This document shows, piece after piece, positions 10,811 to 60,395 of a stretch of DNA of 64,000 bases; position 1 is the first letter of the stretch; each line of letters begins with the position of its first letter. The position numbers and the translations under genes were made by a program. Origin of the DNA: Okamejei kenojei (taxonomy: Eukaryota); the NCBI GenBank assembly GCA_035221665.1, contig CM069153.1, positions 23,870,001 to 23,934,000 on the forward strand. Reading direction: 5' to 3'. Below the pieces are notes generated by a model. That model made no database searches and was not told where the DNA came from. It was given only the letters and a program-made list of their open reading frames with translations.

Positions 10811-11254
10811 GGTAATTGAACAGAAATCGTCATGGAAATGGATGGGTCCAATCTCTGTAGAGGTTTTGGTATTGCCAAAAATGAGTGAGTCAGATAAAAA
10901 TTAAGGAAGGATTAAGATAGCAGGATTTATGATAAAGCCATATTGATCTTTAGGGTGGAGTCAACCAAGAAAGAATGCAGTTTAAAGGTAATAAAGTTGT
11001 GGAATAATACGAGCTGAAGTAGTCCAGTACGTGATGAGACTATGGGAGTAATAGAAATTATGCAGTTTGTATCTGATCTGGTAAATATGACCCAAAGCTT
11101 GTTCAGTCTCAAAGCTAGTCTCACCAGAACAGTATCACCAGAACAAAGTGGTTCTCAAACTCCTATTCCTAATTTTACTCTCTCTATCTGAAACCTAGTC
11201 TTTTGCATTAACCATTGTTAATTAACTATTGATGGAGTTAAAGGAAGTTAATTT

Positions 11255-12920
11255 TCTTTGTGACCCCTGATTCTGGACTCACCCAACATTGGGAACATTT
11301 TTCCTGCATCCAGCTTGTCCAGTCCTTTTATAATTTTATATGTTTCTAAAAGATATCCCCTCATCCTTCTAAACTCCAGTGAATACAAGCCTAGTCTTTT
11401 CAATCTTTCCTCATATGACAGTCCTGCCATCCCAGGGATCAAACTCTTGAACCTACGCTGCACTGCCTCAATCACAAGGATGTACTTCCTCAAATTAGGA
11501 GACCAAAACTGTACACAATACTCCTGATGTGGTCTCACCAGAGACATATGCAGAAAAACCTCTTTACTCCTATAACTGAAATCCTCTTGTTATAAGGCCA
11601 ACATTCCATTAGCTTTCTTCACTGCCTACTGTACTTGTAAGCCAACTTTCAGTGACCGGTGTACAAGGACGCCCAGGTCTCGCTGCACCTCCCCCTTACG
11701 AACCTAACCCAATTGAGATAATAATCTGCCCCCTTGTATTTGCCGCCAAAGTGGATAACCTCACATTTATTTATATTATACTGCATCTGCCACGCATCTG
11801 CCCACTCACTCAACCTGTCCAGGTCACCCTGCAACCTCCTAACATCCTCTTCATAGTTCACACTGCCACCCAGCTTTGTGTCATCCATAAACTTGCTAGT
11901 ATTGCTCCTAATTCTCTCTTCCAAATCATTAATATATATGGTAAACAGTTGCGGCCCCAACACCGGGCCTTGCGGCATTCCACTCGCCACTGCCTGCCAT
12001 TCTGAAAAGGACCCGTTCACTCCTACTCTTTGCTTCCAGTCTGCCAACCAATTTTCTATCCATGTCAACACACAACCCCCAATACCATGTGCTCTAATTT
12101 TAGTCACCAATCTCCCGTGCGGGACCTTATCAAAGGCTTTCTGAAAGTCTAGATACACTACATCCACCGGCACCCCTTCATCCATTTTACTTGTCACATC
12201 CTCAAAAAATTCCAGAAGATTAGTCAAGCATGATTTCCCTTTCATAAATCCATGTTGACTTGGACTAATCCTTTTACTGCTATCCAAATGCCTCATTATT
12301 ACCTCTTTAATAATTGACTCCAGCATCTTTCCCACCACCAAAGTCAGGCAAACTGGTATGTAATTCCTTGTTTTCTCTCTCACTCCTTTCTTGAAAAGTG
12401 GGATAACATTAGCTATCCTCCAATCCTGAATCTATTGAACATTGGAAAATGATCACCAATGCACTATTTCTAGAGCCACCTCCCTGAGGACCCTGGGATG
12501 CAGACCATCAGGCCCAGGGGATTTATCATCCTTCAGTCCCTACCCAATACTATTTCTCGCCTAATGAATTTTTTTTTTCAGTTCCTCTACCTCCTTAGAT
12601 CCTCTGTCCTCCAGTACATCTGGGAGATTGTATGTGTCTTCCTTGGTGAAGACAGATCCGAAGTGCCTATTCAACTCTTCTGCCATTTCCTTGTTGCCCA
12701 TAATAATTTCACTCGTGTCTGCCTTCAAGGGACCCACATTTGACTTTGCTGCTCTTTTTCCCTAAAAATATCTAAAGAAGCTTATACTGTCTTTCTTTAT
12801 ATTCCTGGCCAGCTTCCCTTCATACTTCATCTTTTCAGCCTGTATTGCCCGTTTTGTTTCCTTCTGTTGTCCTATGAAAGTTTCCCAATCCTCTAGCTGC
12901 TCTTTGCTGTGTTACACATC
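11255..12920 (-). mobile_element. CR1 LINE ORF2 (RT) fragment
   Basis: ORF 11649..12383 QHGFMKGKSCLTNLLEFFEDVT..VYLDFQKAFDKVPH..SGMPQGPVLGP..YINDL..KFMDDTKLGG. Confidence 0.93.
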
Positions 12921-28499: not shown

Positions 28500-28930
28500 G
28501 ACTGACCATTTTTGTCAGTTGTCCCCATATCCTGGGGATGTCTGCGGTTTGGGATCTGCATTGCTGGATTTCCCCTCCCCAGGAATCCATATAAATATAT
28601 AGATACCCGCAGTAACCCTCCCGGCACCCGGGCTGACCGTGCAGGTCAGTTTAACCCCATATTCTGGGATTACTGCGGTATGAAAACCGCATATGCTTGC
28701 ATTTCCCCTCCCCGGGGAACCCAGCCTTACCGTTATGGTCAGTTTTAACCCCATCTCCTGGGGACTACTGCAGTCTGGAAACCGCATATTCTTGGATTTC
28801 CCCTCCCCAGGAACCCAGGCTGACCATTCAGGTCAGTTTAACCCATATCTTGGGGACTACTGCGGTCTGGAACCGCATATTCTTGGGTTTCCCCTCCCTG
28901 GGAACCCAACGTTTAGAATCACTGACCGTG
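28500..28930. repeat. ~94-bp tandem repeat (~4.5 copies) in the DIRS 5' region
   Basis: Recurring CTGACC..GGTCAGTTTAACCCCAT..GGGACTACTGCGGT..AACCGCATATTCTTGGATTTCCCCTCCCC. Confidence 0.85.
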
Positions 28931-31305: not shown

Positions 31306-31376
31306 TTTATGACATCTGAAAGATTGTAACTTTTTTTGTATTATCTTTATATCTGCAGGTGAACTGAATTCTGGAA

Positions 31377-31440
31377 ATGGATTTATGCCTCACATTTTAT
31401 CTTTATTTCATTCTACACTTATGCGTACCCTCTGCAGAGA
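31377..31440 (+). CDS. Ig-superfamily membrane protein, signal-peptide exon (exon starts at 31359)
   Basis: Acceptor TTATCTTTATATCTGCAG|31359; ATG 31377; MDLCLTFYLYFILHLCVPSAE (21 aa hydrophobic leader) + 1 nt; donor GTAAGT at 31441 (phase 1). Confidence 0.85.
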
Positions 31441-32171
31441 GTAAGTACCTAAAACCCAGAGGCCCGGGTTCGGCTGCTGTAAGTGTGGTGTTTGCACGTT
31501 CCCCTTGTGACGGTGTGGGTTTCCTCTGGTGCTCTGGTTTTCCTCGCACATCTCAAAAGACGGATTTACAGGTTAACTAGCCTCTGTAAATTGCCCATGA
31601 CTTGTAGGGAGAGGATGTGAAAGTGGGATAACATAGAACTAATATGAATGAGTGATCGATGGTTTGTGCAGATTTAGTGGGCCGAAAGGCCATATTTCTA
31701 AACTCTAATAGAAGTTGATGGAAGTTTATGGCTATGCAGGGAATGGAGGCATGTTGTTCATGTGCAGGCAGATGAGATTAGTTTACGTTGACAACATGTT
31801 TGGCACAGATATTGTGTTTAGTGTTTAGTTCAGAGATACAGCATACAATCAGGCCCTTCGGCCCACCGAGCCTATGCCAACCATGATCACCCATACACTA
31901 GTTCTATGTTATCCCACTATCGCACCCAGCACACTTAGGGCAACTTACAGGCCAATTAATCTACAAACCCGCACGTCTTTGGAATACAGGAGGAAACCAG
32001 AGAAAACTCACATGGTCACAGGGAGAACTTGCAAACTCCACACAGATAGCACCCAAGGTAAGGATCGAACCCGGGTCTTTGACGCTGTGAGACAGCAGCT
32101 CTACTGTTGCAGCACTGTGTTCTAAATGGCCTGTTCCTCTGCTGTACTCATCTATGTTCTGTGATTTTCAG

Positions 32172-32507
32172 CGTTTGTGAATTTGGTTTGTAATGAATCG
32201 GTGACAGGAATTCTGCATGAGGATGCCACCCTACCATGCAAAAGAGATACAACAGGTCCAATTAACATCACATTCATAAAACTGCATCAAGATCAAACCC
32301 GTAATGAAATATTGATCTTTAACACAAGTGAAAATGTTCGTAGAGGTCAGAATCGAATCCAATTACGTTGTCAAGATGAATTACATTGTCAACATGATCT
32401 GTCACTGATAATCCACAAAACGGAGCTGTCAGATAACGGAACATATCAGTATAGTGTGCGTGCAAAACATGGACATGACTTTGTAAAAATTAATTTGATC
32501 GTTGAAG
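32172..32507 (+). CDS. Ig V-set domain exon 1 (B7/butyrophilin-like spacing, non-canonical cysteines)
   Basis: Acceptor GATTTTCAG|, donor |GTGAGT, 336 nt phase 1-1, open. VTGILHEDATLPC..NRIQL..DLSLIIHKTELSDNGTYQY..INLIVE. Confidence 0.9.
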
Positions 32508-32692
32508 GTGAGTAATATTGTACGTCCTCTGCTTTTTCATTTTTTAAATATTGGTTAAAATTAATTGTTAATAAATTGCAGCTTTCCACTTCCAAAGCAC
32601 GTGTGAGTTTGGTAAACTTATGCAATGTTGAGGATTACATTCAGAGAGTATTACCACGGCATTTTAAAAAAAAACTCTATTTTTCTTTAGGG

Positions 32693-32925
32693 GGGGCGGC
32701 ACAGTGGCACAGCTGTAGTTGAGCTGCCTCACAGTGCCAGAGACCCAGGTTTGATCCTGACCGCGGGTGCTGTCTGTGTGAAGTTTGCACGTTCTCCCTG
32801 TGACCGCGTGGGTTTCCTCCGGGTGCTCTGGTTTCCTCCCACATCCCAAAGTTGTGTGGATTGTGGGGATTAATTGGTCTCTATAAAAGAAAACCTCCCC
32901 CTAGTGTGCAGGGAGTGGATGAGTA
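32693..32925 (+). mobile_element. HE1-type V-SINE (intronic)
   Basis: GGGGCGGCACAGTGGCACAGCTGTAG..GCCAGAGACCCAGGTTTGATCCTGACC. Confidence 0.85.
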
Positions 32926-33392
32926 AGTGAGATAATGTGTGGGGAGGAACTGCAGATGCTGGTTTAAACAGAAAATAGACACAAAATACTGGAGTAACTC
33001 AGCGGGCCAGGCAGCATCTCTGGAGAGAAGGAATGGGTGGCGTTTCTGGCTGAGACCCTTAGTCATAGAGTGATAGTATGGAATTAGGCCCATCAGCCCA
33101 CTGAGCCCATGCCGACCATGACCACCCGTACACTAGTTCTATGTTATCCCTTTGCACCCTGCACACTTTGGGGAACTTTCAGAGGCCAATAAATCTACAA
33201 ACCCGCGCGTCTTTGGAATACAGGAGGAAACCGGAGAAAACCCACGGGGTCACCGGGTGAGCCTGCAAACTCCACACTGATAGCACCCAAGGTCAGGATC
33301 GATCCCGGGTCTTTGCCGCTGTGAGGCAGCAGCTCTACTGTTGTTATAAAAGGCCTGTTCCTCTGCTATACTCTTCTTTCTATGATTTTCAG

Positions 33393-33716
33393 CACTTGTG
33401 AATTTGGTTTGTAATGAATCAGTGACAGGAATACTGCATGAGGATACCACCCTACCATGCAAAACAGATACAGCAGGTCCAATTAACATCACATTCATAA
33501 AACTGCCTCAAGATCTAACCCATGATGAAACATTGATCTTTAACTCGAGTGAAAATGTTCGTAGAGGTCAGGATCGAATTCAACTACGTCATCAAGATCC
33601 ATATGATCTGTCACTGATAATCCATAAAACGGAACTGTCAGATAACGGAACGTATCGGTATACTGCGTATACAGATCAAGGACATGACTTTGCGCTCATC
33701 ACTTTGATCGTTGAAG
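33393..33716 (+). CDS. Ig V-set domain exon 2 (tandem duplicate of exon 1)
   Basis: Acceptor GATTTTCAG|, donor |GTGAGT, 324 nt phase 1-1, open. VTGILHEDTTLPC..DRIQL..DLSLIIHKTELSDNGTYRY..ITLIVE. Confidence 0.9.
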
Positions 33717-33889
33717 GTGAGTAATATTGCACCAGGGAATTGATGAGTAAGTGAGATCATGTGTAGGGAGGAACTGCAGATGCTGGTTTAAATGGAAAAT
33801 GGACACAAAATGCTGGGGTAACTCAGCAGGCCGGGCAGCATCTGTGAAGAGAAGGAATGGGTGACGTTTCGGGACGAGACCCTTAGTCA

Positions 33890-34187
33890 AAGAGTGATAC
33901 AATGTGGAAACGGGCCCTTCGGCCTAACTCGCCAGCGCTTGGTCCATATCTCTCCAAACCTGTCCTATCCATATACCTGTCTTATTGTTTCATAAATGAT
34001 GGGATAGTCCCAGCCTCAACTACCTCCTCTGGCGGCTTGTTCCATACACCCACGATCCTTTGTGTGAAAAATTCACCCCTCCGATTCCTATTAAATCTTT
34101 TCCCCTTCACCTTGAACCTATGTCCTCTGGTCCTTGATTCCCGTACTCTGGTCAAAAGACTCTGTACCCAATCTATTCCTCTCATGA
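33890..34187 (-). mobile_element. CR1 3' fragment
   Basis: TRGHRFKVKGKRFNRNRRGEFFTQRIVGVWN. Confidence 0.85.
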
Positions 34188-34615
34188 AGATTCAGTTTAC
34201 ATATTAAATGCTGTGAGAATTGAGAAAATAGAAGGTTTTGATGGCGAAATATCAGATATTGATAAATTGTGCATCAAGTGGCCATTGTGGATGACAAGTA
34301 GAGAAGTCTTATTATTGATACACAAAGTTCATCAGTTTTCTGCTATTTGCAGAGAGCAAGCTGTAATCTATCCAGTCATTTCAAATGAAAGCTAAATAAA
34401 TGTGAAGGAACTGTACGATATTTGGCATTTCTGGCTCAGTGCCCTCCAATCTGCAACTCCAAACCCCCTTTATCCTGTATCTACCTGTCACTCACCAGGA
34501 TTTGTCATGCCCCCACCTTTTTTCCGGCTTTTCCCCCTCCCTCCTGCAGTCTTAAGAAGCATCCTGATCTGAAACTTCACCTATCCATGTCTTCCTGAGA
34601 TGCTGCCTGTGTTAA

Positions 34616-34833
34616 GGGCCTGTCCCACTTTCACGACCTCTGCCGACTTTGCCCTTGAATCATACTCACAGCATGGTCGTCACGAGGCCGTAGGAGGTTG
34701 TAGGTAAGTCGTAGCAGGCTGTGATGCTAGTCATAGGTACTCATGGCATGGCCGGGGCGTTTTTCCTAGCATGATGAAAAATGTCCACGAGTAAAAAAGG
34801 TTGTGAATTAGGTCTTGAAAGTGGAACAGGCCC
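34616..34833. mobile_element. MITE with ~24-bp TIRs, flanked by TTAA on both sides (PIF/Harbinger- or Kolobok-like), inserted in a PLE 3' end
   Basis: TTAA|GGGCCTGTCCCACTTTCACGACCT ... AGGTCTTGAAAGTGGAACAGGCCC|TTAA. Confidence 0.85.
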
Positions 34834-35404
34834 TTAACTCCGGCACTTTATTTTTGTTTGTAAACCAGCATCTGCATTTCCTTGTTTTTCCAACTTTCTT
34901 AAAGTTTCATAGGCACTTATTTAGTGCCTTTAATGGTATATATGGACATATGGAGTTGGCAGTGATGTCCCCTAGATAAACGTCCAGAAGTCCTAGTACT
35001 GGAAATCTGCATTGAGGATATTTGTTGAGTGTGTTATTTGGCTTGGACACTCCATTCATAGCAGCTTCTACAACTATTATCTCTAGATTTGCAGATAAGA
35101 CACCTTGACTGAGTAATGGAGAACTCTTAGCACATATTGTATCTCAGATTACTTTAATCTCATGGTTAATTTATGACCTGATCTATCATGTAATAAAGCA
35201 GTAGGTTTAATCTGTGTAGTGAGTCGTATGAATGCAAGCCTTTGTATATAGAAAGCGGGGAAAACAATATTTGCAATGCTGCATCTAATAAAAAATGAAC
35301 TGCAGATGCTGGTTAAACACAAAATGCTGGAGTAACTCAGCGGGTCAGGCAGCATATCTGGAGATTTTTTTGTGTGTTTTGTTTAGAGATACAGCCCACC
35401 ATGT

Positions 35405-37090
35405 CCGAGCTCTATCTAATGTTTTTTGAATGCATCCGGTGAGTTGGCCTCCACTGCCTTCTGAGGCAGAGAATTCCACAGATTCACAAATCTCTGGGCG
35501 AAAAAGATTTTCCTCATCTCAGTTCTAAATGGCCTTCCCCGTATTCTTAAACTGTGGCCCCTGATTCTGGACTCCCCCAACATCGGGAGCATGTTTCCTG
35601 CATCTAACGTGTCCAATCCCTTAATAATTGTTTTTATTTTTTTATAAGACATCCATTCATCCTTCTAAATTCCAGTGCATACAAGCCCAGTTCCATCATA
35701 TGTCCCGCTTTCCCGCCTCAACCTACACTACACTCCCTCAATAGTAAGAATGTACATCCTCAGGTTAGGAGACCAAACCTGCACACAACACTCCAAGTGT
35801 GGTCTCACCAGGGCACTGTACAACTGCAGATGGACCTATTTGCTCTTATACTCAAATCCTCTCGTTATGAAGGCCAACATGCCATTAGCTTTCTTCATTG
35901 GCTGCTGTAGCTGCATGCTTACTTTCAGTGACTGATGTACAAGAACACCCAGGTCTCATTGCACTTCTCCTTTTCATAATCTGACATGATCAACACTTCA
36001 ACTCCCCCTCCCATTCCCAATCTGACCTTTCTGTCCTGGGCCTCCTCCATTGTCAGAGTGAGGCCCAGCGAAAATTGGAGGAACAGCACCTCATATTTCG
36101 CTTCGGTAGTTTACACGCCAGTGGTATGAACATTGCTTCTCTAACTTCAGTTAGCCTTTGCTTTCCCTAACCATCCCCTACACCTTCTGTTCAACCACTA
36201 GTCTTAGTGTCTCTGCCTACATTCTATATTTGCCCCGCCCCCTCCCATGACATCAGTCTGAAGAAGGGTCTCGACCCAAAACGTCGCCCATTCCTTCTCA
36301 CCTGAGATGCTGCCTCACCCGCTGAGTTACTCCAGCATTTTTGGGTCTACCATTCAAATAATAATCTGCCTTCTTGTTCTTGCCACCAAAGTGGATAACC
36401 TCATATTTATCCACATTATACTGCATCTGCCATGCATCTGCCCACTCATCCAACCTATCGAATTCACCCTGCATCCTCATTGCATCATCTTCACAGTTCA
36501 CCCTGCCACCCAGCTTTGTGTCATCTGCAACTTTGCTAATGTTACTTTTAATTCCTTCATCTAAATCATTAATATATATTGTGAATAGCTGCAGTCCCAG
36601 TACCGAGCCTAGCGACACCCTGCCAGTCACTACCTGTCATTCAGAAAGGGAACCGTTAATCCCTACTCTTTGTTCCTGTCTGCCAATCATAGAAACAGAA
36701 ACAAAGAAACTAGGTGCAGGAGGAGGCCATTCGGCCCTTCGAGCCAGCACCGCCATTCATTGTGATCGTGGCTGATCGTCCCCAATCAATAACCCATGCC
36801 TGCCTTAACCCTTGATTCCACTAGCCCATAGAGCTCTATCTAACTCTCTCTTAAATTAATCTAGTGATTTGGCCTCCACTGCCCTCTGTGGCAGGGAATT
36901 CCACAAATTCACAACTCTCTGGATGAAAAAGTTTTTTCTCACCTCAGTCTTAAATGGCCTCCCCTTTATTCTAAGACGGTGGCCCCTGGTTATGGACTCA
37001 CCCAATATTGGGAACATTTTTCCTGCATCTAGCTTGTCCAGTAATTTTATAATTTTATTTGTTTTTATATTCCCCCTCATCCTTCTAAAC
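35405..37090 (-). mobile_element. Two CR1 fragments with a nested PLE 3' fragment (35990-36351, plus strand, hammerhead motif at 36258-36285)
   Basis: YINDLDEGIKSNISKVADDTKLGG and FFIQRVVNLWNSLPQ; PLE part GGAGGAACAGCACCTCATATTTCGC..CTGAAGAAGGGTCTCGACCCAAAACGTC. Confidence 0.85.
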
Positions 37091-37094
37091 TCTA

Positions 37095-37932
37095 GAAATC
37101 GCTATCAAAATATGGGGGGGGGGGGGGGGGAACAACATTTCATGGCGGCCGCGCGCGCATGTGCTCATTCACTCACATGCTAGGCTTCAGAGGCTTCAGC
37201 CGTGGGCCCTTTGAACGGTAATTTCAGCTCAATCCAGCGCTTAATGCAGCTCAACTCTGCCTGTCTCGCCTGGTTAACCTACAGCCCTGCCTGGACTGAC
37301 GGGACACCAGCTTGGAGTCGTGGAGCTAGCGCTGCTTCTCCGCGCTGGCTTTAAACCTGGGCCATATTTCCCCTAAATCCAGGCTGGGCTGAAGGTTAAC
37401 CTGGCCGGACGGGCAGAGTTGAGCTAGATTTAGCGCTGCTTCTCTGCGCTGGCTGTGGGCCTGGGGGCACAGCTCCCGTCTGACTCCCTACGTCTCTGGC
37501 CACTCCCTGGAGATGGTCCAGTGGCAATTCGGCAGCGATTGCAGCGCCGGAGAGCCGGGGTTGATCCTGGCTGCGGATGAGGCACAGGTCTGTGTCCAGG
37601 ACTGCCGAGAGTGCTTTTGCCACGTCTCCCTCCTCCAATGACCACGTTCTATCCTCAGTCCCATCCCCCCCACTTCCGCCTCTGACCGACACAACCCTCC
37701 TCCAATGATCGCGCTGAATCATCATGTCCCGCCCCCATTGCCTGCTGACTGACGTCTCTCTCGGCGCCCTCGATCAGCAGTCCCACCCCCACTGTCTCGC
37801 GGAAAGTGAAGATTTCACCGGATTTTAAAATCCGGATTACAAAAAATGGGGGGGGGGGGGGATTGTCCCCGCCACTCAAAACTGAGGGGTACGTGTGTCC
37901 CCTGCCCCCCCCAACCCGGATTTCCACCCCTG
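37095..37932. mobile_element. Non-autonomous hAT-like DNA element
   Basis: Right end reverse-complements to CAGGGGTGGAAATC; left GAAATC + G-run appears truncated; GC-rich interior without protein motifs. Confidence 0.5.
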
Positions 37933-38551
37933 CCCTTGAGGATGCCCAGCAATCAATTCAAGGCTTCTTGAGCACTGGCACCAGGGAGGCAACACACCAT
38001 CCTCGCGTCTCGCCTGTTTCCACAGAATCTCCTGTCGTACCTCCCACTACCACTACGACGTTACCTGATGTAGGTCTCCGGTTGAGCCAAAGTGCTAGGA
38101 TTTAATTGAAAGACCTGTCGCCGCTCGGACTGGAAGTGTTTTACCAGCTGAATCACTGTGTCACCCTTCATTGTATAGTTATATTTTATTGTTATTATTA
38201 TGGATGCGATGATTTTGATTGGAACTAGTTCTTTAAATTTGCAAACATAATGAAAATGTTAAATGTTTACTGGGTATCTCTCCAAGGGCCCTCCACGCTC
38301 TCCGACACCCCACCTCTGTGAGCCTTTGATGTGAGGCATGTTTTTTTCCATGCTTCTAGACTCCCCATAATTTTCATAAATTAGTTATGATTAGAATGGA
38401 ATTTCGGTGAGCCCCGCATTGGGTTTAACCATCCAGAGTTGAGTCTCCATTAGTATTGTCCTTATGTCCATGTCTCAGATTCCTGTCCATTCTGTGTCAC
38501 AAGTGCCTTGTATAAATAAATTATAAAATCTATATTATCAAGAAGAAATCA

Positions 38552-38792
38552 GAGCAGCACGGTGGTTCAGTGGTAGAGTTGTTGACTGACAGTACCAGAG
38601 ACCCGGGTTCGATCCTGACGATAGTAGTTGTCTGTACGGAGTTTGTACGTTTTCCCTGTGATCGCATGGGTTTTCTCCAGGTGCTTCTGTAAATTGTCCC
38701 GAGTGTGTAGAATAGTGCTAATGCATGGGGTTAGCATGGACTGGGTGGGCCGAAGGACCCGTTTCCCTGCTGCATCTCTAAAGTCTAAAGTA
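38552..38792 (+). mobile_element. HE1-type V-SINE
   Basis: GCAGCACGGTGGTTCAGTGGTAGAGTTG..ACCCGGGTTCGATCCTGAC..GGGCCGAAGGACCCGTTTCC. Confidence 0.8.
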
Positions 38793-38842
38793 AAGTATAT
38801 TCTGTATTTTGAGACACGTTAATTATTTATTTTCTATTTCAG

Positions 38843-38992
38843 GACCTGAGCACTTGAAAACTAATGCATCAACACACCAAGAGAAACCAAAAGAAAAGGA
38901 GAGAACTGGTGTTGGTCTTATTCTTTCCATGGTTTTCTTAATGCTTCTGATATTCTCAGCAATGTTTTACTACAAAAAACAGTTATCTCGAG
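38843..38992 (+). CDS. Stalk/transmembrane exon of the Ig-superfamily gene
   Basis: Acceptor TTTTCTATTTCAG|38843, 150 nt phase 1-1. GPEHLKTNASTHQEKPKEKERT-GVGLILSMVFLMLLIFSAMFYY-KKQLSR is a TM segment plus basic stop-transfer. Donor GTACAC is weak. Confidence 0.82.
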
Positions 38993-39059
38993 GTACACTA
39001 TTAATTCTGATAATTGAAAAGAAACAACTGACTTTTGCATAGTAGTTTTCAAAGAATCA

Positions 39060-39495
39060 TTTAGTTTAAAGATACAACATGGAAACAGGCCCTTCGGCCC
39101 ACCAGCTCCACGCCGACCATCGATCGGCTGTTCACACTAGTTCTATGTTATCCCACATTTGCATCCACTCCCTGACACAGACTTCTCTTGGTCCCTGGCA
39201 CTGTTATCTCCTGAATTTATATCATATGCAGCCAGCTATAAAATGGAGAGCTAACTTTTTATTTTTTGGAGCACGTTATGTATGGGCAGCACAATGCGAC
39301 AATTTTTTATAGAGGCCAATTAAACCTACAAACCTGCACATCTTTGGGATGTGGGAGGAAACACCCAGAGGAAACCGACATGGTTATATGGAGAACGTGC
39401 AAAAGCCACACAGACAGCACCCGAGGTCAGAATTGAACCCGGGCCTCTGGCGCCGTGAGGCAGCAGCTCCACTCGCTGTGCCACTGAGCCACCTA
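39060..39495 (-). mobile_element. HE1-type V-SINE (interrupted)
   Basis: GGAAACAGGCCCTTCGGCCCACC tail; GAATTGAACCCGGGCCTCTGGCGCCGTGAGGCAGC head. Confidence 0.8.
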
Positions 39496-39561
39496 TTTTC
39501 TCTTTTATTGTAATCTTGTGTGAATATAGATTAACTAACCTATTCTCTGCCCACCCATCAG

Positions 39562-39587
39562 TGTCTCCATCAAGTGAATCAGTCTAG
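39562..39587 (+). CDS. Candidate last coding exon (cytoplasmic tail VSPSSESV-stop)
   Basis: Branch-point-like CTAAC + pyrimidine tract + CAG| at 39561; a phase-1 join gives VSPSSESV*. Alternative acceptors exist at ~42313 and ~42371. Confidence 0.35.
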
Positions 39588-39762
39588 TGAACAACCACTC
39601 AATCCTTCCATAACAAACACATTCCTTCTCACATCAATGGGACCAAAATGGCACATGAAACAGATTGGATTTCAGCCAGATCTTGTGCAGTTGCACAATT
39701 CAGCCTTGCTCCTGTACTCAAACATTCTTGCAATGGAGGCCTCGCCAGCTGAAGCGGCCAGT

Positions 39763-40070
39763 GGGCGGGCTAGTGGCGCATGGATAGAATTGCTGCCTAA
39801 CATGCTTGCAGCACCAGAGACCCGGGTTCGATCCTGACTACGGGTGCTGTCTGTCTGGAGTTTGTATGTTCTCCCCATGACCGCATGGGTTTTCTCCGAT
39901 ATTTTCAGTTTCCTCCCACAATCCAAAGACGTACAGGTATGTAGGTTCATTGGCTTGGTGTAAATTGTCCCTAGTGTGTGCAGGCTTGTGTTAATGAGCG
40001 GGGAACGCTGGTCAGTGCGCCAAAGGTCCTGTTTCAACGCTGTAACTCTAAACTAAACTAACCTAAACTG
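39763..40070 (+). mobile_element. HE1-type V-SINE
   Basis: CCAGAGACCCGGGTTCGATCCTGACTACGGGTGC..CCTGTTTC..(CTAAA)n. Confidence 0.85.
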
Positions 40071-41116
40071 AATGCCGCTTTCAATGGTTCAATGGTTTCT
40101 TTATTTTTGTATGTACCCAGGTACAGTTAAATACATTTTTTGCATACAACTCAGCAAGACTATCCACGTACATAAGCACCATTCCCAGTTTGCACAGAAT
40201 TTAGAACAGTGCACTGTTTGTATGCAAGAGGTGCCATTTTACAGTCCCAGCTGCTGCTGGCCACAAAGGCCCTTTGCAGCCGTCGCTTCAATCCGTGTCG
40301 TCCCGCGATCCGATGTCCCTCTCCTTGCATGGCTACCTTATCCCTTGCTCCTGGGAGGGGAGGGGGGGAGGGGGGGAGGGGACGCCTCCCCAACGGAGCT
40401 TGAGGGAGCAGAACATAAGACCCCCAGTTCTTTTTACTGGGCCATTGATCCAGCAACTGCCGTCGTTCCTATCCTCCTCCTCTCACAGCGGGTGAGCTGG
40501 GCCTGTTGTTGGGATGGGCAGTGCCTCACAGGGGCCCTTTATCCAGTGTCCGCTGCCGTTTCTCTCCATCCTCCTCACCGGGCGGTTTCTGAGTTCCCCC
40601 ATTCCACGGCAGGTGAGTCAGGCCTGTTGTTGGCACGTGGCTGCGGCTCGCCAGGATTCAATCTCAAGAATTGGTGCACATGGACACCAGATCATTGCAC
40701 ATTTCCTTTTGCCAGTCTATCATTGACTTGGGTAATAATGCCTTCCTGTTTTAAGTACCAATGTAAATAACCTCACAATTATCCACAGTAAACTCCATTA
40801 GCCTTACATTGGCCCATTCGCCTAACACCTCGAGACACATCTAGAGTTTAAAAAAGATGAGAGTTTGGTGGTAGACAGGTGTGTGACATGGTGCATGGTT
40901 ATGAAGCAATGCTATCCAGGAAATAATCTTTCAGCTCTAACCTACTGCTAATCTGTCATTTACTTGAATAATAATGTTGTGATTTTCTCTAAAGCATCGA
41001 TGAGGAGATTTTCTGAAACATCACGGTCAAATTTAATAGGTATGTCATTTTTTTTAAATCAAAATGTTTTACAATGTCAATTAAGAGCGCCTGCTTTACT
41101 TTAATTAGAACGCGAA

Positions 41117-41962
41117 CCATGGAATGGTGTTGCATGGGAACAGGCCATTTGGCCAACAATGTATGCGCAGACCATGATGCCAATCTTAACTCATTCCATC
41201 AGCCCGGACATTGTATATATCCCTCCATTTTCTTCCTGACCAAATCCTGTCTAAACGCCTCTTAAATGTTGCTTCCAACACTTCCCCTGGTTGTGTGTTC
41301 CAGGCCTTTACTGATGTGTTAAGAAAACTTGCCTCGTAAATCTCCTTTAAACTATCCCCCTGTCAGCTTAAAGCTATATGCTCTAGTATTTGGCATTTCC
41401 ACACTGGGAAAAAGGCTGACTATCTACCTGCTCATTATTCTATAAACCTCTATCAACCTCCATCAAACCTCACTTAGCGTCCAGAGAAAACAATCCATGT
41501 TTGTTCAATCTCTCCTTTTAGAATTTAGAAAATTCTTTAATCAATCCAAAATCCAGGTAAACCCATTTTTGACCCTCTCCAACACCCCCACTTCTTTTCT
41601 GCAGTACGGCAACAAGATCTGCGCACAATACTCCAAATGTAACGTCACCAATATTTTGCGCAGTTACAACCTGACTTCCCGAATTGTCAACACCCTGACC
41701 GATGAAGGGAACTTCTCTACCAGCTTGACTACTTGTGTGTCACTTTCTAGGAGCTATGAACTTGCACGCCAAGATCCCTTGAAGCCTGAAGAAAGGTCTC
41801 GACTGGAAATATCACCTATTCCTTTTCTCCAGATGTGCTGTCTGACCCGCTGAGTTACTCCAGCTTTTTGTGTCTATCCCCAAGATCCCTCTGTACATTA
41901 GTGCTCCTAAGAGTCCTATCATTTATTGTATACATTCCTCTTGCATTTGACTTCCCAAAATG
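41117..41962 (-). mobile_element. Old CR1 fragment carrying a hammerhead-unit insertion (41780-41879) with 11-bp TSD
   Basis: CR1 motifs GCACAATACTCCAAATGT and TTGACTTCCCAAAATG; CCAAGATCCCT at 41769-41779 and 41880-41890 flanks CCTGAAGAAAGGTCTCGAC..TGTGTCTATC. Confidence 0.8.
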
Positions 41963-43415
41963 AAATCTATGGGATGTGGGAGGAAACCAGAGCACCCAGA
42001 GGCAGCCCACACGGTAACAGGGAGCATGTGCAAACTCCACACAGACATCACTCGAGGTTAAGTTCGCAACTGGGTCTCCGGCACTGCGGGCCAACAGCTC
42101 TCCTAGCTGCGCCACTGTGCTGCCCTTTATTTCCTGACAGATGACGCAGAGTTGAAGTGACAAGACTTTACATGACCTGCAAACTAAATTATTTTATCAA
42201 GTTAAATTTCTGAAACAAGTGTTAGATTTGGATATTAAAAATCCTCTTGTCTGTTATCATAATCATTCACGTAAATCGGCATTATCATCACATCTCGATA
42301 TTTCCACCACAGCTCAAAGTACTGATAAATCACAATTCAAACAGCTAATTATATTTTACTTATTTCCAAGCCAATTGACTGAGATCTGATCCTTCAGAGA
42401 AGAAGAGTGAATGAAGAGTATAAACGGAGCAGGAATAACAGGAAGAGACTTGACATTCTGAAGATTATGATCAGGCATAACTCAAGTAAAAAAGGAAGAT
42501 AACCTTTCTATATGATTACTCAAATTTCTTGGCAATGTTGTAAATCTTTGATGACTAAGGAAATATAATTAAATTTGGTTTTTTTGACAATTTTCAACAT
42601 GTTTTTATTGCAATATGAAATTGACAAGTGTTGAAAGTGTAAACATGACATTCTTTCATGCATTCTAAATCCAAGTTCAGACTTATCCCATCAGCCCGAT
42701 AAACACCCAGCCTTAACTTAATAGACACAAGAGTCACAGCTACAGCTACTTGCTGCCTTGTTTTATGCTTACTAGTGTATTAGGACCATGTTAGAGTGGG
42801 AGATTAACACAGTGATGAATAAAAGGTGGGCAAATAGTTGTACATGCAACCTGGAAAAATAATAACCCAAAACAATGTGTGTTATGTGCAATGTCCCTCC
42901 AAATACTATCAAATTTATATTCATGTGTACTATACATCCTATGCTAATAAAACCTGAGATTATAGTGAAGCATTTTTTGAATAGCTTCACTGATTTATCA
43001 TCATGTCCTTAAAAGACACTTGGACAGGTACATGGATAGGGAAGGTTGGAAGGATATGGACCAAACATAGGCAGATTAGCTTTGATGTGGTATTTTGGTC
43101 AGCATGGACAAGCTGGGATGAAGGGCCTGTTCCCACGCTGTGTGACTCTATGATGAGTGTCCTCACAATAGCCCAATGCTACAGAATGGGTCCAGAATAC
43201 CCTGTAGCCTCAAGTCACTGCGAGCAATGGAATTATCTTGCACTCCCTTGCATCATGCTAAGATTTATTTTAGTTTGGTTTAGAGATACGACATGAAAAC
43301 AGGCCCTTCAGCCCACTGAGTCCATGCCGACCATTGATCACCCGTTCATACTAGTTCTATGTTATTCCACCTTCTCATCCACTTCCTTCACATTAGGGGC
43401 AAATTATAGGGATTA

Positions 43416-44737
43416 CTAGACTAAGTGGGATCCGTTGCGTCCCAGCATCACACAGCTGCTGGTCCCCCAACGCAATATTCCACCTCTCCACCAATTCCAA
43501 TATTGGTGGCCAGTGGGGTGGGGGTGGGGGTTCTGGAGCGCTAGTATGGGTGTTGTGTGCTGAAGGGGCTGGTTTTCAGAGGGCTAGTATGGACATTGTG
43601 GGCCGAATGGATTCTTGGGCTGGTGGCTCAGTCACTCAAGCCTGTTGTGCTGGCAGCTCACTCACTCATGGTTGGTGGCCTCACAGTTGACTCATGGCTA
43701 TTCCTTGAAATTTCATTTCAAGCAGGGTGCAAGGGCACCAAATTCAAGTGCAGTTTCATATCATTTTAAGCAGGGTGCAAGGCCACTAAAGACAGAGAGT
43801 CATGACCTCTCCCTCCCCCATCTCATAGAGACTGAGCCACGTCCACACTTCCAGGTTTTATAGTCCCCCCACATCCCACCAGAAGGAGTGTGACCTTCAT
43901 GGCATGATTGACAGGAGAGAGAACCTCAACATTGTTTTAAACACTAATAACTCTTTTATTTTTCACCGATTGGAAATATCCTCGGCACCTGATGAGCGGA
44001 GGGGGACTGAGCAAGATGGCCAAAAATCACAGCCGTACGTGGTAGCGTATTTTCTAAAATCAACACAAAGCGCAAACAGGAAGTGGTCAAGATTAGACTT
44101 TTAATTATATAGAAGGCAAGGCAGCTCTAATTTGGCAAGGCAGCTCGCTTTAGCACTTTCAAAACCAAAGGCAAGGCAACTCGCTTTAGCACTTACAAAA
44201 AATAAGGCAAGGCAGCTCGCTTTAGCACTTTCAAAACCAAAGGCAAGGCAGCTCACTTTAGCACTTTCAAAACCAAAGGCAAGGCAGCTCACTTTAGCAC
44301 TTTCAAAACCAAAGGCAACACAGCTTTAGCACTTTAAACCAAAACACACTTTTGCATTTCAAACTACATTTTCAAACCACATTAAGTGCACTGACAGGTC
44401 AGTAAAACCGCTCACAGTGTAGTAAGACATGTGTTCAGTGTTAGTCACAGCTCAGACTGAGAATTGCTCCCCCATCTTGCAGAGAACTGAGGCACCTCCA
44501 CACTTCCGGGTTTTATAGTCCCTCCGGAAGCAATGTGGCCTTCAGGAGAGAGAATCTCAACATTTTTTAAACACTAATAACTCTTTTTCATTGTTGGGAA
44601 AATCCTCTTGTCCTGCGCATCGCTGGAGGACTCTGAATAAGATGGCCAAAACTCACAGCCGTAAGTGGCAGCATTTTTTCTAAAATCAACATACAGACAT
44701 GAGGAAATGGTCAAGATCAGACTTTTAGTAATATAGA
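43416..44737 (-). mobile_element. Composite non-autonomous Helitron (one 3' end, two 5' ends)
   Basis: Minus strand: A|TCTATATTACTAAAAG at 44737; second 5' end TCTATATAATTAAAAG at 44113; 3' GC hairpin at 43427-43443 then CTAG|T at 43416; no TSD. Confidence 0.8.
44133..44340 (+). repeat. 36-bp minisatellite (~5.5 copies) inside the Helitron
   Basis: GGCAAGGCAGCTC(G/A)CTTTAGCACTTTCAAAACCAAA head-to-tail. Confidence 0.92.
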
Positions 44738-49078: not shown

Positions 49079-49220
49079 NNNNNNNNNNNNNNNNNNNNNN
49101 NNNNNNNNNNNNNNNNNNNNNNNNNNNNNNNNNNNNNNNNNNNNNNNNNNNNNNNNNNNNNNNNNNNNNNNNNNNNNNNNNNNNNNNNNNNNNNNNNNNN
49201 NNNNNNNNNNNNNNNNNNNN
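49079..49220. other. Assembly gap (142 N)
   Basis: Run of n characters. Confidence 0.99.
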
Positions 49221-50230: not shown

Positions 50231-50816
50231 TCATCTCCATTTTTTTCTGTCACCTCTTTCTTTCTGCATTTCTTCATCACGCCTTCTGCCACGAAGAAGC
50301 CATGTTCTCACATATTCATCGGGGTTGAATTTTGACAGAGGAGGTCCCACTAACTTAATAAATAGAAGAGTTGAGAGATGATCAGTTTGAAGTCTTGCAT
50401 GTGGTGGTGACGTGCAGAAATTCATGCCACTCAAGCTTCTTTCACATTCTGCTGTTGATACCGGAATTGTATTTACAGCTGTTAGCAGCTGCTGAAAATC
50501 TGCAGAAACTATCACAAATACAATTTATCACAAAATATCTGAAAATGATTCAAACCTGCAACTTCACTTATAGCATCACCTCCACTGAGTTCAAGCCTGT
50601 GACTGGCACAGTGCCAAACAGTTGCATTAGGGAAATCATCAAGAAATAGTTTTGCAACCCCTGCATTTCGTCCTAACGTTACTGATGCATTATCAGTTAC
50701 AAGTGATATCACATTTCATTTAGGTACTTTATTGAAAAAACACCTCTTTGTAAGCAACTTAGAAGCCCATCATATATAGATTTTGCATTTGCAAGTCTCA
50801 TATGTTCTAAGTCAAA
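50231..50816 (-). pseudogene. hAT transposase fossil, C-terminal part (KIAA1586-like), with internal deletion
   Basis: SLVTDNASVTLGRNAGV..WHCASHRLEL (second catalytic D and CxxH); NTIPVSTAECERSLSGMN (hATC dimerisation domain). Confidence 0.85.
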
Positions 50817-53800
50817 ATAGTAAGATTAAATGAGAACTTACCAGTTTGAAGTTTGATCTTTATTTTATGAGGAGTTACGATGAGGGATTATGTGAAGAAG
50901 CCCCGCCAGGCCCATGCGCGTCATACTTCAAAGCAGCAGCGTGAAAACACGGAAACTATAGCCAAAGTGATTTAGTAAGACTCAGAAGACTAGAACTACC
51001 AGATGATCTTTGCAATTATGAGGGCCGGGAGCGGAGGGCACGTAATCCCTCATCGTAACTCCTCATAAAATAAAGAACAAACTTCAAACTGGTAAGCTCG
51101 TTTAATCTTACTATTTTACTTTGGAGTCACGTGAGTGACTACGTGAAGATTTCAGAGCTCTGTGATTTCATGCCGTAGATCCATTCCATACAACACACTG
51201 CTTCAGTTGACACAGTAGTGAATAAATAATGTATTGAACATTGCTTTGAATTATCCAATAATCATTTTTTAAATAACAAAACAGTAATAACCCCTCTATC
51301 CCAGGGGAAATTACAAATGAAATTGATAAAGACAAAGCAAATCAAATCAAACGGAACCCAAAACAGCATGCCCAAACCCTGGCACTGTCAGGACAGATTT
51401 ATCATAAATTTTAGAAAAGTTGGTTCCTTAGACCATCCTGCGGCCTCGCTGCGGATGTTAATGCAGCCCTGGTGGAGTGAGATTTAAACACGTGAGTGTC
51501 TACTCCAGCGGAATCCAAAACCTGTTTTAACCATCTAGAAATAGTTTATACTGACACCTTTTTATGAGGTTTTTTGTGACTGATGAGCATTGCTGTCTCA
51601 GAGCCTCTGAGACTCTTAAGTTACCTTGATATATTGACTCAGGTGCTTCACTACACATAACGTTTGGTCAACAGGGTATGCTTTAAAGCTTACTCTGGTT
51701 CCGGCCATTCCTGGCCTGCTTTGTTTGATTAATTCATACACATAAAATTTAATGTTATCTGCAGAAGACTACATGCTATCTAGTCGTAACTTTTGCAATG
51801 TTTGCACTCGTTGCGCTGATACTAGCGCCATGAGCTTAACCATTTTAAGTGTTAAGTTCTGAAAATACAATTATGTAATTGGAGCCCATTGCCGAAGCAG
51901 TGTGAGAACTATACTGACATCCCAGATTTCTGTATATCTAGGCTTAGGAGGATTTTTGTTCAAGATTCCTCTCATGAATCGGGACACTAATGGATGAGAT
52001 AGGTTGTTGTTCTGAAACTGCCCTAAATAGGAGGACAAAGCACTCCGAGCACTATAAATGGCACTATAACTCAAGTGTTCATCAAAATGCAATGTAGCAA
52101 GGAACTCCAATACATCCGGTATGCTTGCAGTATGATCTGACTGTAAAAAACATCTCCCATTTCTTAATATGAGACACATATTGTTTCTTAGTGCTATCTC
52201 TCCAAGCTGCAGTTATCACATCCATGGTCCTATTCGACAATCCAAGGCCTTGGAACGGTCTGGTCAGAACCTGCAGATTAACAAATTAATACTAACATGT
52301 AGCGGATGACTCTCCTGTTACTGGATGCACCAACAAATTACTGCAGTTGGGGACAGTCATGAATGGCTGAGTCATCATTCTGAGCACCAATGGGAATCAT
52401 GGCTGCGTAGGCCAGTCCGGAACCACCAAAACGCCTGAGGCGCTCTATTTTGGTGAGACATTGCCTAATCAGGCAGAATGGGGAAAAAACATAAAATAAT
52501 GTACGTCCCCAATGTAGCGAGAATGCATCCACCGCTACTGCTCCTGGATCTAGTTCCCATGAAACGTATTTAGGCAACTGGTGATTTAGCCTGGATACAA
52601 ACAGATCAAAATCTGGCAAACCATAGCGGCTGACAATCAGTTTAAAAACATCAGGATTTAACATCCATTCTATGTTGTCATTAAATCTTCGTGACCTGTT
52701 TTTTGCCACCACATTATCTCTACCTGGTGGGTAGATAGCTGAGACCCAGATGCTTCTAAAAATACATCAGTGCCACATGAGGTTAGCCAGATTATCACCT
52801 GATACTGACCTTATTCCTCCCTTGTGATTGATATATGCCACAGCCGTGGTATTATAAATCTGGAGTTGACCATGTAAATTATTCGTTGTTGAACAGTAAG
52901 CTTTTAATCCATAGAATGCACCCAGCAATTCTAAGTAATTTATACCATGCCTGTGCAGATTAAATCCTCTTGCACACTCCATCTACCACCATAGCTAGAC
53001 TCGCTGTCCGTAACTCCCCATCCCAGAGCACTCACATCTGTTTGTAAAACCACTGAAGGTTGCTGAACCAAAATGTTTTTTTGTAGTTTGTACAATATTG
53101 ATAATCCACCATTGTAATTCAGCCATGGCTCTGGTTGGTAACTGCATAGGTCTATCAAAATGACCTGCATGTTCTTTAAGTGCTAGTTCTCTAGCTCATT
53201 GCAGACTTTGATAGTGCAGAGGTCCAAACTCCACTGCAGAGAAAGCTGCCACCAATTTACCAATAACACTGGCTACTTCCCGGATGGAGGGATATTGTTT
53301 TTCAGCGAGACTAGTACAGACCTCCTTGATCTCCACAGCCTTGGCTGTAGGCAAAGTCACTGACATATCAACTGAATCAATGACAAATCCCAAATAATCA
53401 ATTTTTTGGGATGGCTCTAACTTGGATTTTGTTGGATGGACCAGAAACCCTAACCTTTCAAACAGGTGTGTGGTTGCTGAAACCGATTCCTCAGCTGTCT
53501 CCTGAGTGTTGCTTATGATTAAAATATCATCTAGATAAGCCATTACAATGTGATTCTGGGCCCGAAGTAGCGCCAGCACTGGTTTCAACAATTTCGTGAA
53601 CAGCCTAGGAGCTGAGGTTAACTCATTGGGTAATGCTTTAAATTGCCACAGCTGTCCCATCCAACTAAATTTCAAGTATCTCCGATACTGATGATGAATT
53701 GGTATTGAATAATATGCATCTTTCAGATTTATAGTTGCCATATAACAGCCTTGTGATAACAGCTGTTTCGCAGTATTGAAGGTGTCCATTTTAAAATGCC

Positions 53801-55443
53801 TATATTGAACATAGGAAACACTGGTTTAGGTCCAGAATTACTCTACATCCCCCATTTTTTTTCTGCTTGGGGAATATATTGGACACAAATTGTTGAGGAT
53901 GGTTTGTCGTCCTCTCAATTACCTCTTTTTGGGACAAAACCGTAATTTCTTCTTTTACCTGCTGAGTTCTGGTGCAGAAAAAAACAATACTCTATTAGGC
54001 ATATTGTGTACAGGTGGATGAATTCCTGACATTAACTCTATTCAAGCCTGACACAGTGTCTAGTATAAACCGATCAGATGTTATGTAGCACCACTCATCA
54101 TAAAACAATTGCAACCTAACCGGAGGTTGATCCCCAGAAATCTTATCCTAGACAGAATGAATCAACCGTACCTCTACAGTTGACCTTGAAGTCCTCCTTC
54201 TTCCCATATTGGGGTTGTAGCTGGGATACACAGGTGGGTAATACCCTCGTCCCACTGGCCCACTCTGCTTGGCCCTGCCCCTGGATCCGACCCCCTTCGC
54301 ACTGAAAACGACCTGCTAGGTGGCATCCTGGCAGAAGGGGCATATGTCTTCATGAGACTAATTGTTTTGGCCTTTTCCTCCAGGTCCTTGGCTTGTTTGA
54401 GGAGGTCCACCCCAAATAAATAATCTGGGGCTTGAATGCTGGTGGACCTACACAAAGCTGCAAATTTCGGGTTCAGCATTGGCTTTATAGCTATTTTTCT
54501 TATGCAATTGACCTCAAAATGTGCGTTACAGAACAGGGCCAGCATATCTTGTTGTGTGCCAGACATTGGTGCCCCCGGACCATTTTTCCAAATGCAGTGA
54601 AGCCTGCTGCCACCAACTTGAGGACCCGCTGAAACCTGATTTCTTGTCCACGCATCGTTGCACTCATTTGTGCCCATATTGGAGAGTCCACGGTGGGCAC
54701 TTTGAGCGACGCACAATTAACAGGTGTTTTATATCTTGTGGCCGTCTCTCCCAAAATCGTATCCTGGAGCTGGTGAGAAGCCATGTCATTAACATTGGCG
54801 GCTAGGTTTTCGCTCCATAGCCTCACCAGTCCCTTCCGGATTAGCAAAGTTTTGCGCTATGTCCGGGACACCTGGCGCATGGCTCATGTGCTCTGGTATG
54901 AGCACAAATGCAGTAACACCAGCTTCAGGGTCAGACTCCTCCTGCCCTGGCTCTCCCGAGTCATGCTCTAGGGAGGTCTCTTCCAGCCCTAAACAAGGTG
55001 CTGAAGAGGATGCTTCCCACTGGTATCCATAAGCGGTGTTTTCTTCTTCGCTATATGGACCTCTGCAAAAAGCTGTGTGGGGAATCCTAGGGGCATTGGA
55101 CCCCGAGTGAATTTTTACATGCCTCTTTAAGTTTGGAGCATTTTTCCATTTGGTTGAGCCGTCCCCATACCTTTATATTAAAAGGAGGGGAGTCTTCCAC
55201 ATCATCAGACGCATCAGATAAGATGAGCCTGAGAGTACTTTGTTTTGTCCTTCCTCCCTGGTGAGGTGGCCTCAGTGCCCTGAAGCACTGGAACTGAAGT
55301 AGGCAGTTGAGCTGCCGGTAGAAACAGTAGCCGGTATCGGAGCCGGCGTTAGCGCAGCCATTATCTCCAAACCCGACCTATAAGCGGTAATCGCGGAGCC
55401 GGCATTAGCGCAGCCATTATCCCCCGACCCGATTTAAGTAAAA
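50817..55443 (-). mobile_element. DIRS1-type retrotransposon (gag, RT, RNase H, methyltransferase-like, tyrosine recombinase), decayed
   Basis: RT NLKDAYYSIPI..QFKALP..SAPRLFTK..AYLDD; RH LQTDVSALGWG/HGINYLELLG/NTTAVAYIN; MT DLFVSRLNHQLPKY..DAFSLHW..YVFSPF; YR FKSHSTRAA. Right end 50817-50900 with ICR ~51039-51150; only TTTTACTT of the left end remains. Confidence 0.92.
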
Positions 55444-57076: not shown

Positions 57077-57291
57077 TAAAACTCTTGTTGGTTTGTTGGT
57101 TTGCAACAGATTCTATATCGCGAAAATTCAAGCCGTTTGTGGATTTACTCCTCCACCCTTTGTCGTAACTGAGAAATGTTTACATATTCCTGTAGAGTTT
57201 TTCCTCCTCCACATTTTGTATTAAAAATTAGAACATTTGGTTATTAATTTCCCCGCTTTTTTAGTAAAAAATATTTAAAAAAATTAAAATC

Positions 57292-57780
57292 ACTGCTGCA
57301 TGAGTCACAGTGCCATCTCACACATGTCCAATTACAATGGTTCTCATTTACATATGATATGACATCACAATGGGACAGTGGTGGGAGATTGGAACTTTCA
57401 CTTGGTCCCACTAAAATCAAACTGCTGCATGAGTCACAGTGCCATCTCACAAATGTCTAATCGCAATGGATCTCATTTGCATATGACATCACAATGGAAC
57501 AGGTGTGGGAGATTGGAACTTTCACTTGGTCCCACTAAAATCAAAACTGCTGCATGAGTCACAGTGCCATCTCACACATGTCCAATTACAATGGTTCTCA
57601 TTTACATATGATATGACATCACAATGGGACAGTGGTGGGAGATTGGAACTTTCACTTGGTCCCACTAAAATCAAACTGCTGCATGAGTCACAGTGCCATC
57701 TCACAAATGTCTAATCGCAATGGATCTCATTTGCATATGACATCACAATGGAACAGGTGTGGGAGATTGCAACCTTCACG
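57292..57780 (+). repeat. Tandem repeat with A-B-A-B higher-order structure (129 + 125 bp; period 254)
   Basis: Units begin ACTGCTGCATGAGTCACAGTGCCATCTCAC at 57292, 57421, 57546 and 57675; alternate units share diagnostic bases. Confidence 0.92.
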
Positions 57781-57819
57781 TGGTCTGGCGTGCACAATCA
57801 AATAGAGAAAGTTTTCCTA

Positions 57820-58986: not shown

Positions 58987-59022
<36 letters not shown>

Positions 59023-59048
59023 GGGGTGGTTAGTATGTGTGTGTGGCG
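57820..59048. repeat. C/T-rich low-complexity tract, then degenerate GGTTAG(TG)n simple repeat
   Basis: CCCT-rich at 57820-58640; GGGGTGGTTAGTGTGTGTG units at 58700-59048. Confidence 0.9.
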
Positions 59049-60395
59049 GGGTCACTGCCTGCCATTCTGAAAATGACCCGTTTACTCCTACCCTTTGTTT
59101 CCTGTCGGCCAGCCAGTTCTCTATCAACATCAATACTGAACCCCCAATACCGTGTGCTTTAAGTTTGTATACTAATCTCTTATGTGGGACCTTGTCGAAA
59201 GCCTTCTGAAAGTCCAGATATAACACATCCACTGGTTCTCCCTTATCCACTCTACTAGTTACATCCTCAAAAAATTCAATAAGATTCGTCAGACATAATT
59301 TACCTTTCGTAAATCGATGCTGACTTTGTCCAATGATTTCACCACTTTCCAAATGTGCTGCTATCCCATCTTTAATAACTGACTCTAGCAGTTTCCCCAC
59401 TACTGATGTTAGACTAACTGGTCTGTAATTCCCCTTTTTTCTCTCTCCCTTCCTTTTTAAAAAGTGGGGTTACATTAGCTACCCTCCAATCCTCAGGAAC
59501 TACTCCAGAATCTAAGGAGTTTTGAAAAATTATCACTAATGCATCCACTATTTCTGTGGCTACTTCCTAGAGTACTCTGAGATGCAGACTATCTGGCCCT
59601 GGGGATTTATCGGCCTTTAATCCGTTCAATTTACCCAACACCACTTCCCTGCTAACCTGGATTTCACTCAGTTCCTCCACCTTATTTAACCCCCGGTCCC
59701 CTTAGTGAAGACAGAACCAAAGTAGTTATTCAATTGGTCTGCCATGTCCTTGTTCCCCATGATCAATTCACCTGTTTCTGACTGCAAGGGACCTACATTT
59801 GTTTTAACTAATCTCTTTCTCTTCACATATCTATAAAAACTTTTGCAGTCAGTTTTTATGTTCCCTGCCAGTTTTCTTTCATAATCTATTTTCCCTTTCC
59901 TAATTAAGCCCTTTGTCCTCCTCTGCTGAACTCTGAATTTCTCCCAGTCCTCTGGTAGGCTGCTTTTTCTGGCTAATTTGTATGCTTCATCTTTTGTTTT
60001 GATACTATCCCCGATTTCCCTTGTTATCCATGGATATACTACTTTCCCTGATTTATTCTTTTGCCAAACTGGGATGAACAATTGTTGTAGTTCATCCATG
60101 CAGTCTTTAAATACCTTCCATTGCACATCCACTGTCAACCCCTTAAGAATCACTTGCCAGTCTATCTTGGCCAATGCACATCTCATACCTTCAAAGTTAC
60201 CTTTGTTTAAGTTCAGAACCCTTGTTTCTCACAATTATGTCACTCTCCGTCCTAATGAAGAACTCAACCATATTATGGTCACTCTTGCCCAAGGGGCCAC
60301 GCACAACAAGACTGCTAACTAACCCTTCCTCATTACTCAATACCCAGTCTGCTCTCTTGTTGGTTCCTCTACATGTTCGTTTAGAAAACTATCCC
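59049..60395 (-). mobile_element. CR1 ORF2 internal fragment
   Basis: CLTNLIEFFEDVT..YLDFQKAFDKVPH; YERKLAGNIKTDCKSFYRYVKRKR..LNNYFGSVFT. Confidence 0.92.

Follow-up and report, generated by a model that had tools for sequence, protein, structure and literature searches.

A skate gene with two V-set domains and a rewired cysteine core, a possible SECTM1-like descendant of B7

The ligand of CD7, SECTM1 (also K12), is the described system closest to the gene studied here, which lies on the forward strand of a 64-kb window of DNA from the skate Okamejei kenojei (contig CM069153.1, positions 23,870,001 to 23,934,000; coordinates below count from the first letter of this window). The published description (PMC4603632) gives SECTM1 two invariant cysteines, Cys38 and Cys55, modelled as an atypical disulfide within one sheet, a Trp at the position of the F-strand Cys, the motif G113xYxWxLxGxQ and a V-type region running from W33 to V133. 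It places the SECTM1 locus next to CD7 at 17q25.3 and reports the gene as eutherian-specific and absent elsewhere. The ancestry of SECTM1 is unsettled. SECTM1-CD7 co-stimulates human T and natural killer cells. Further comparators are the B7 family (CD276/B7-H3, PD-L1/PD-L2, B7-H6) and the butyrophilins. Our analysis revealed a six-exon skate gene whose V domains lack the canonical disulfide and carry a cysteine pair of the SECTM1 type. We judge it slightly better than an even chance that its product is a B7-derived, SECTM1-like co-signalling ligand.

Gene structure and the core of the V domains

Comparison with orthologues defined a coding span of 31377-42378 (+), with 308 codons and a single terminal stop. 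The product consists of a leader, two V-set domains, a transmembrane (TM) segment and a short tail; the frame is intact, and the exons are phase-compatible (phase 1) with AG/GT splice sites. A preliminary description of this DNA had proposed the leader, V-set and TM exons as a four-exon gene, open and compatible in phase. All four are real and their AG/GT flanks were verified, while two more coding exons follow. The features are as follows:

31359 to 31440, forward strand: leader exon, with 18 non-coding nt before the ATG at 31377, a signal peptide and a phase-1 donor; 95% identity to residues 1-22 of Amblyraja P0003
31847 to 33732, forward strand: tandem duplication unit of exon plus flanking intron, 31847-32523 against 33082-33732, 84.5% identity
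32172 to 32507, forward strand: V-set exon 1, with the A/B Cys pair, two more Cys in the D-E loop, Tyr at the F-Cys position, no Trp and four N-glycosylation sequons
33393 to 33716, forward strand: V-set exon 2, with the A/B Cys pair only; absent from the RefSeq X2 isoforms of two further skates
38843 to 38992, forward strand: exon for the stalk, the uncharged TM segment and the start of the tail
40995 to 41039, forward strand: cytoplasmic exon of 15 codons with an RRxS motif and no Tyr; 88-94% identity to orthologues
42371 to 42378, forward strand: final coding exon, encoding two residues and ending in TGA; the C-terminus matches the skate relatives P0003-P0006

Downstream of the last coding exon, AATAAA/ATTAAA signals occur at 42568, 42818 and 42946. 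Upstream of the ATG, 31359-31376 reads GTG-AAC-TGA-ATT-CTG-GAA in frame. Shark and ray relatives begin six codons earlier, with M-N-x-I-L-E-M, so that an older start has apparently been lost in skates.

Both V exons match the Pfam V-set profile better than its curated cut-off (E 1.4e-10 and 3.9e-10), and all 33 family rows match this profile. The canonical V-set bond between B- and F-strand cysteines and the C-strand Trp are both missing. DxGxYxC is replaced by DNGTYQY and DNGTYRY in the two domains, which puts a Tyr at the F-Cys position, as had been noticed before, and no Trp occurs anywhere in the protein. The earlier view that the Phe of INITFIK had taken the place of the Trp did not hold, as the Trp column of VSIG4 aligns with Leu37 (B-Cys+15, 90%+ conserved). 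Both domains open with Cys-x15-Cys on strands A and B, confirming the spacing of 16 first reported. Overlooked at that stage were two further Cys of domain 1, at domain positions 66 and 72 in the D-E loop, which come with a four-residue insertion. In a set of 49 family domains, this pair is found in seven of the 14 skate domains and in none of the 35 others. The four sequons per domain, also part of the preliminary description, are present in the skate protein but are no trait of the family, in which their number ranges from 0 to 5 across the 49 domains.

A structural model of domain 1 (pLDDT 76.7) shows a V-set sandwich in the ABED/GFCC' layout with C6 on strand A and C22 on strand B. These two residues are invariant in the family alignment and are the sole Cys of domain 2 and of most shark domains; an intradomain bond can thus only be A-B. 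Positions 6 and 22 of heavy-chain variable domains face each other across adjacent strands. The A-B disulfide suggested in the preliminary description fits the predicted strands, and such a cross-strand bond would replace the lost B-F bond and staple the glycosylated V domains, with an aromatic residue probably occupying the core space vacated by the F-strand Cys. One skate protein from Logan, P0006, has a Cys back at the F-strand position of domain 1, which brings that domain to five Cys (1 of 49 domains), which may be an allele, a reversion or an assembly error.

The protein had first been described as a receptor. However, its short cytoplasmic tail of 23 residues lacks Tyr, which argues against Tyr signalling of its own, and its TM segment lacks charged residues. 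Judging from these sequence features, a role as a ligand seems likelier than one as a signalling receptor.

Relatives, expression and domain history

The nearest proteins are uncharacterized RefSeq models from three skates, LOC116988133 (Amblyraja, the thorny skate; 81% identity over the full length), LOC129708458 (Leucoraja) and LOC144594901 (Rhinoraja; 67%). They share the architecture of the gene studied here, differ in the stalk sequence and, as far as our searches show, are unnamed and unstudied in the literature. Moreover, 18 of 20 Logan proteins (three clusters) are 297-299 residues long and come from contigs below 1.6 kb. Compared with the 11-kb coding span in the window, this indicates spliced cDNA in related skates. 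RefSeq X2 isoforms of two skates skip the second V exon and give a single-V form; exon skipping would accordingly yield one- and two-domain forms of the protein.

A tandem multigene family, represented in 20 named species of sharks and rays, shows the Cys pattern without exception; most of its members consist of a V domain, a B7-type C domain and a TM segment. Among solved proteins, these V-C relatives find their best profile matches in CD276, PD-L1 and PD-L2, and their best fold matches in B7-H3 and B7-H6, tied with butyrophilins (BTN1A1, BTN2A1). On its own, the V profile is not discriminating. The V+C ectodomain of B7 is thus present in shark, ray and teleost relatives, whereas the skate gene is V-V without a C exon, and its V domains differ from those of B7 by the missing B-F disulfide and C-strand Trp. 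Butyrophilins share the V+C ectodomain fold with the relatives and typically carry a cytoplasmic B30.2 domain. The skate protein has a non-canonical V core and no B30.2 domain, its tail stopping at 42378, and the orthologues are alike in this. Of the label "B7/butyrophilin-like" in the preliminary description, the B7 part is therefore borne out by the matches of the V-C relatives, while a butyrophilin-like tail is absent.

If the automatic RefSeq names were right, the gene would be a diverged co-orthologue of PD-L2, CD276 or a butyrophilin, and CD276 and PD-L1 are indeed the best profile matches. However, these names vary at random between adjacent paralogues (the nearest ray paralogues are called BTN-like). 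In addition, PMC12151841 identifies skate and catshark PD-L1 as other proteins (XP_032874294 and XP_038660173) with canonical Cys-Trp-Cys, and PD-L2 is reported only from tetrapods. Together with the missing B30.2 tail, this renders such an assignment improbable.

The family had been thought to belong to cartilaginous fish. It does include skates, sharks and rays, but teleost relatives were found as well in Hoplias (XP_066522153) and Anguilla. The Hoplias protein has the A and B Cys only, 15 apart. The repeated V domains of the eel protein P0014 (Anguilla rostrata XP_064180223) keep the A, B and F Cys plus the Trp. This eel model comprises 1147 residues with internal TM stretches, and likely represents several tandem genes merged into one. 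In a hagfish CD276-like protein (Myxine glutinosa, P0036), an A-strand Cys stands 17 before the B Cys and the F Cys is kept; it groups outside the family. Several stingray proteins (P0053-P0056, P0063, P0011) are V-C-C through duplication of the C exon and carry automatic names of unrelated proteins (hemicentin, otk, NCAM). The sequence searches turned up relatives in fish only.

The two V exons with their flanking intron are 84.5% identical over ~680 nt. Between the exons, the nonsynonymous rate (dN) is 0.125, the synonymous rate (dS) 0.161 and dN/dS 0.78. A C-domain exon, its remnant or any other immunoglobulin (Ig) exon did not score anywhere in the 64-kb window. A midpoint-rooted tree of the 49 V domains unites the skate rows in a single branch (100/99), next to a group of ray V-C paralogues (98/90). 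The wide spread of V-C forms suggests the direction of change: the C exon was probably lost in skates, and the V exon duplicated. In Rhinoraja, a V-C paralogue (LOC144594480, P0032) shares a contig with the V-V gene, and both forms may thus persist in skates.

These data also bear on two readings that give the gene a different role or none. Rather than a co-signalling ligand, the protein could be a receptor for recognition or adhesion, either VSIG4/CRIg-like or a decoy that binds pathogens. By both sequence and fold, the single skate V domain matches VSIG4 best among solved proteins, and paralogue turnover is fast, with the dN/dS between the domains pointing the same way; overall, we give this possibility little credence. 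A decaying pseudogene, with the Cys and Trp losses as decay, could be argued from introns full of transposable elements and from a dN/dS near 0.8. Yet the 308-residue frame is intact, the splice sites are canonical, the orthologues are spliced and the substitutions are fixed across 20 species, so that we regard decay as extremely improbable.

SECTM1 and the competing origins

Like SECTM1, the skate protein has a leader, a V-type domain that bears two N-terminal Cys but no F Cys, a TM segment and a short tail. Both have an aromatic residue at the F-Cys position within GxYx(W/Y)x and another five residues before the first Cys (aromatic-x4-Cys); the domain ends 21 residues after the Gly here and 20 in SECTM1, and the predicted A-B disulfide resembles the same-sheet bond modelled for SECTM1. 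The single-V isoforms of the skate orthologues even share the SECTM1 layout. The two differ in the spacing of the Cys (16 here, 17 in SECTM1), in Tyr for Trp, in a longer F-G loop here and in domain number, with two V domains here and V+C in sharks against a single V-type domain. Cys38-Cys55 and a Trp at the F-Cys position, as described for SECTM1 in PMC4603632, are a precedent for the cysteine rewiring. What appears new is the likely tie between this Cys pattern and B7; the pattern itself has a mammalian precedent and the orthologues are in RefSeq. Since SECTM1 and B7 each fail in a tested feature, we file the skate gene under neither.

A viral protein may point in the same direction. Among at least 500 viral fold matches (BFVD) of the skate domain, the top one was the unnamed A0A650AIS6 with 246 residues, a template-modelling score of 0.74 and a root mean square deviation of 2.4; the next match reached 0.61 and 4.3. 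Three entries in its accession series have lengths of 518, 246 and 717, equal to those of EMCLV002L, 007L and 158R, by which A0A650AIS6 would be the poxvirus copy of SECTM1 (EMCLV007). PMC8515872 lists EMCLV 007L as a poxvirus SECTM1 homologue.

As a proxy for chromosomal position, we used the closeness of accession numbers for three genes found by an accession-prefix search of the literature. Amblyraja Sdk2 (human 17q25.1) is 97 accessions from the orthologue. The white shark parvalbumin-like XP_041072779 is 256 from the family member XP_041073035, and its human match is NP_001341568, which we take to be PVALEF at 17q25.3. Two of the three neighbours thus fit a 17q25-equivalent chromosome. 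B7 genes sit in a paralogon of the major histocompatibility complex according to PMC11599192.

Taken together, these comparisons suggest that the skate family is kin to SECTM1 and that SECTM1, too, descends from B7 with loss of the C domain; the skate protein is likely an ancient relative of human SECTM1. The product would be a type I membrane glycoprotein whose two V-sets arose by duplication and which traces back to a V+C family of B7-like fish proteins; its V domains may engage a lymphocyte V-set receptor of the CD7 or CD28 type. A broader proposal, which we hold to be evenly balanced, equates the family with fish SECTM1 and regards SECTM1 as a B7 descendant found throughout jawed vertebrates. 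The B-F bond would have been exchanged for the A-B bond via a three-Cys stage still seen in eel, and the C domain, kept in sharks, would have disappeared independently in skates and in mammals. On this view, CD7-SECTM1 would be a co-signalling axis of the B7/CD28 type whose great age has gone unrecognised, tandemly expanded in sharks and rays.

Several observations weigh against a link to SECTM1 and the ligand role built on it. The likeness was judged against the published description rather than by direct sequence comparison, and that description reports SECTM1 from eutherians only. The exact motif GxYxWxLxGxQ is absent, the family having GxYx(Y/F)xL, an invariant Gly three residues later and no Gln. 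Word-limited or single-sequence searches returned no mammalian SECTM1 or CD7 protein among the relatives. A0A650AIS6 is unnamed, 18% identical and compared model against model; its score is on a par with those of solved generic V domains (VSIG4 0.72-0.73, sialoadhesin 0.74), without a control V domain, and it is not in the top 50 fold matches for a shark V-C model. The dN/dS between the V exons indicates weak constraint or diversification. The window contains no neighbour gene. Moreover, slc9a1 (XP_032900998) is 466 accessions from the orthologue, although it belongs to human chromosome 1, so the accession proxy is weak.

Alternatively, the gene may belong to a B7-like lineage that is confined to fish and has no kinship with SECTM1, in which the A-B Cys pair arose a second time and the protein serves as ligand of an orphan CD28-family receptor of fish (CD28HL1/2, CD28X) or has no CD28-type partner. 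The fish-only relatives fit this view, and one new Cys near the B Cys is a simple change, as the hagfish protein outside the family illustrates. The fold match to SECTM1 could be raised simply because both lack the B-F bond, and orphan CD28 paralogues are present in chondrichthyans, as stated in PMC11599192. Against it stands the joint match to SECTM1 in aromatic-x4-Cys, the aromatic at the F-Cys position, the domain-end spacing, the top viral fold match and the chromosome hints, and we consider this lineage a tentative alternative with a clearly smaller chance than the SECTM1-like ligand.

If the link to SECTM1 is true, its origin would be pushed to the root of the jawed vertebrates, SECTM1 would join the B7 family, and there would be a testable receptor for the expanded cluster of misnamed shark genes. 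Automatic SECTM1-like names occur in non-mammalian genomes, which tempers the surprise. Even without this link, the family offers a natural series for the rewiring of the Ig fold's most conserved bond, from A, B and F Cys with Trp in eel to A and B only in sharks, skates and Hoplias, and a Cys at F again in one skate sequence.

Repeats in the window

Self-repeats make up 37% of the 64-kb window. A broken retroelement occupies 51800-55400 (-) with a reverse transcriptase (RT) frame at 53199-53825 (RVT_1, E 1.9e-18), whose flanking frames presumably are DIRS-like. A broken long terminal repeat retroelement with a zinc knuckle and an integrase core lies at 60984-64000 (-). RT fragments of long interspersed elements are found at 4146-6794, 11248-12431, 36298-36636 and 58987-60228, and a hAT dimerisation fragment at 50231-50524. 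An assembly gap of 142 N spans 49079-49220. Tandem arrays are located at 28626-28908, 44134-44343 and 57285-57785, with units of 95, 36 and ~129 nt, respectively.
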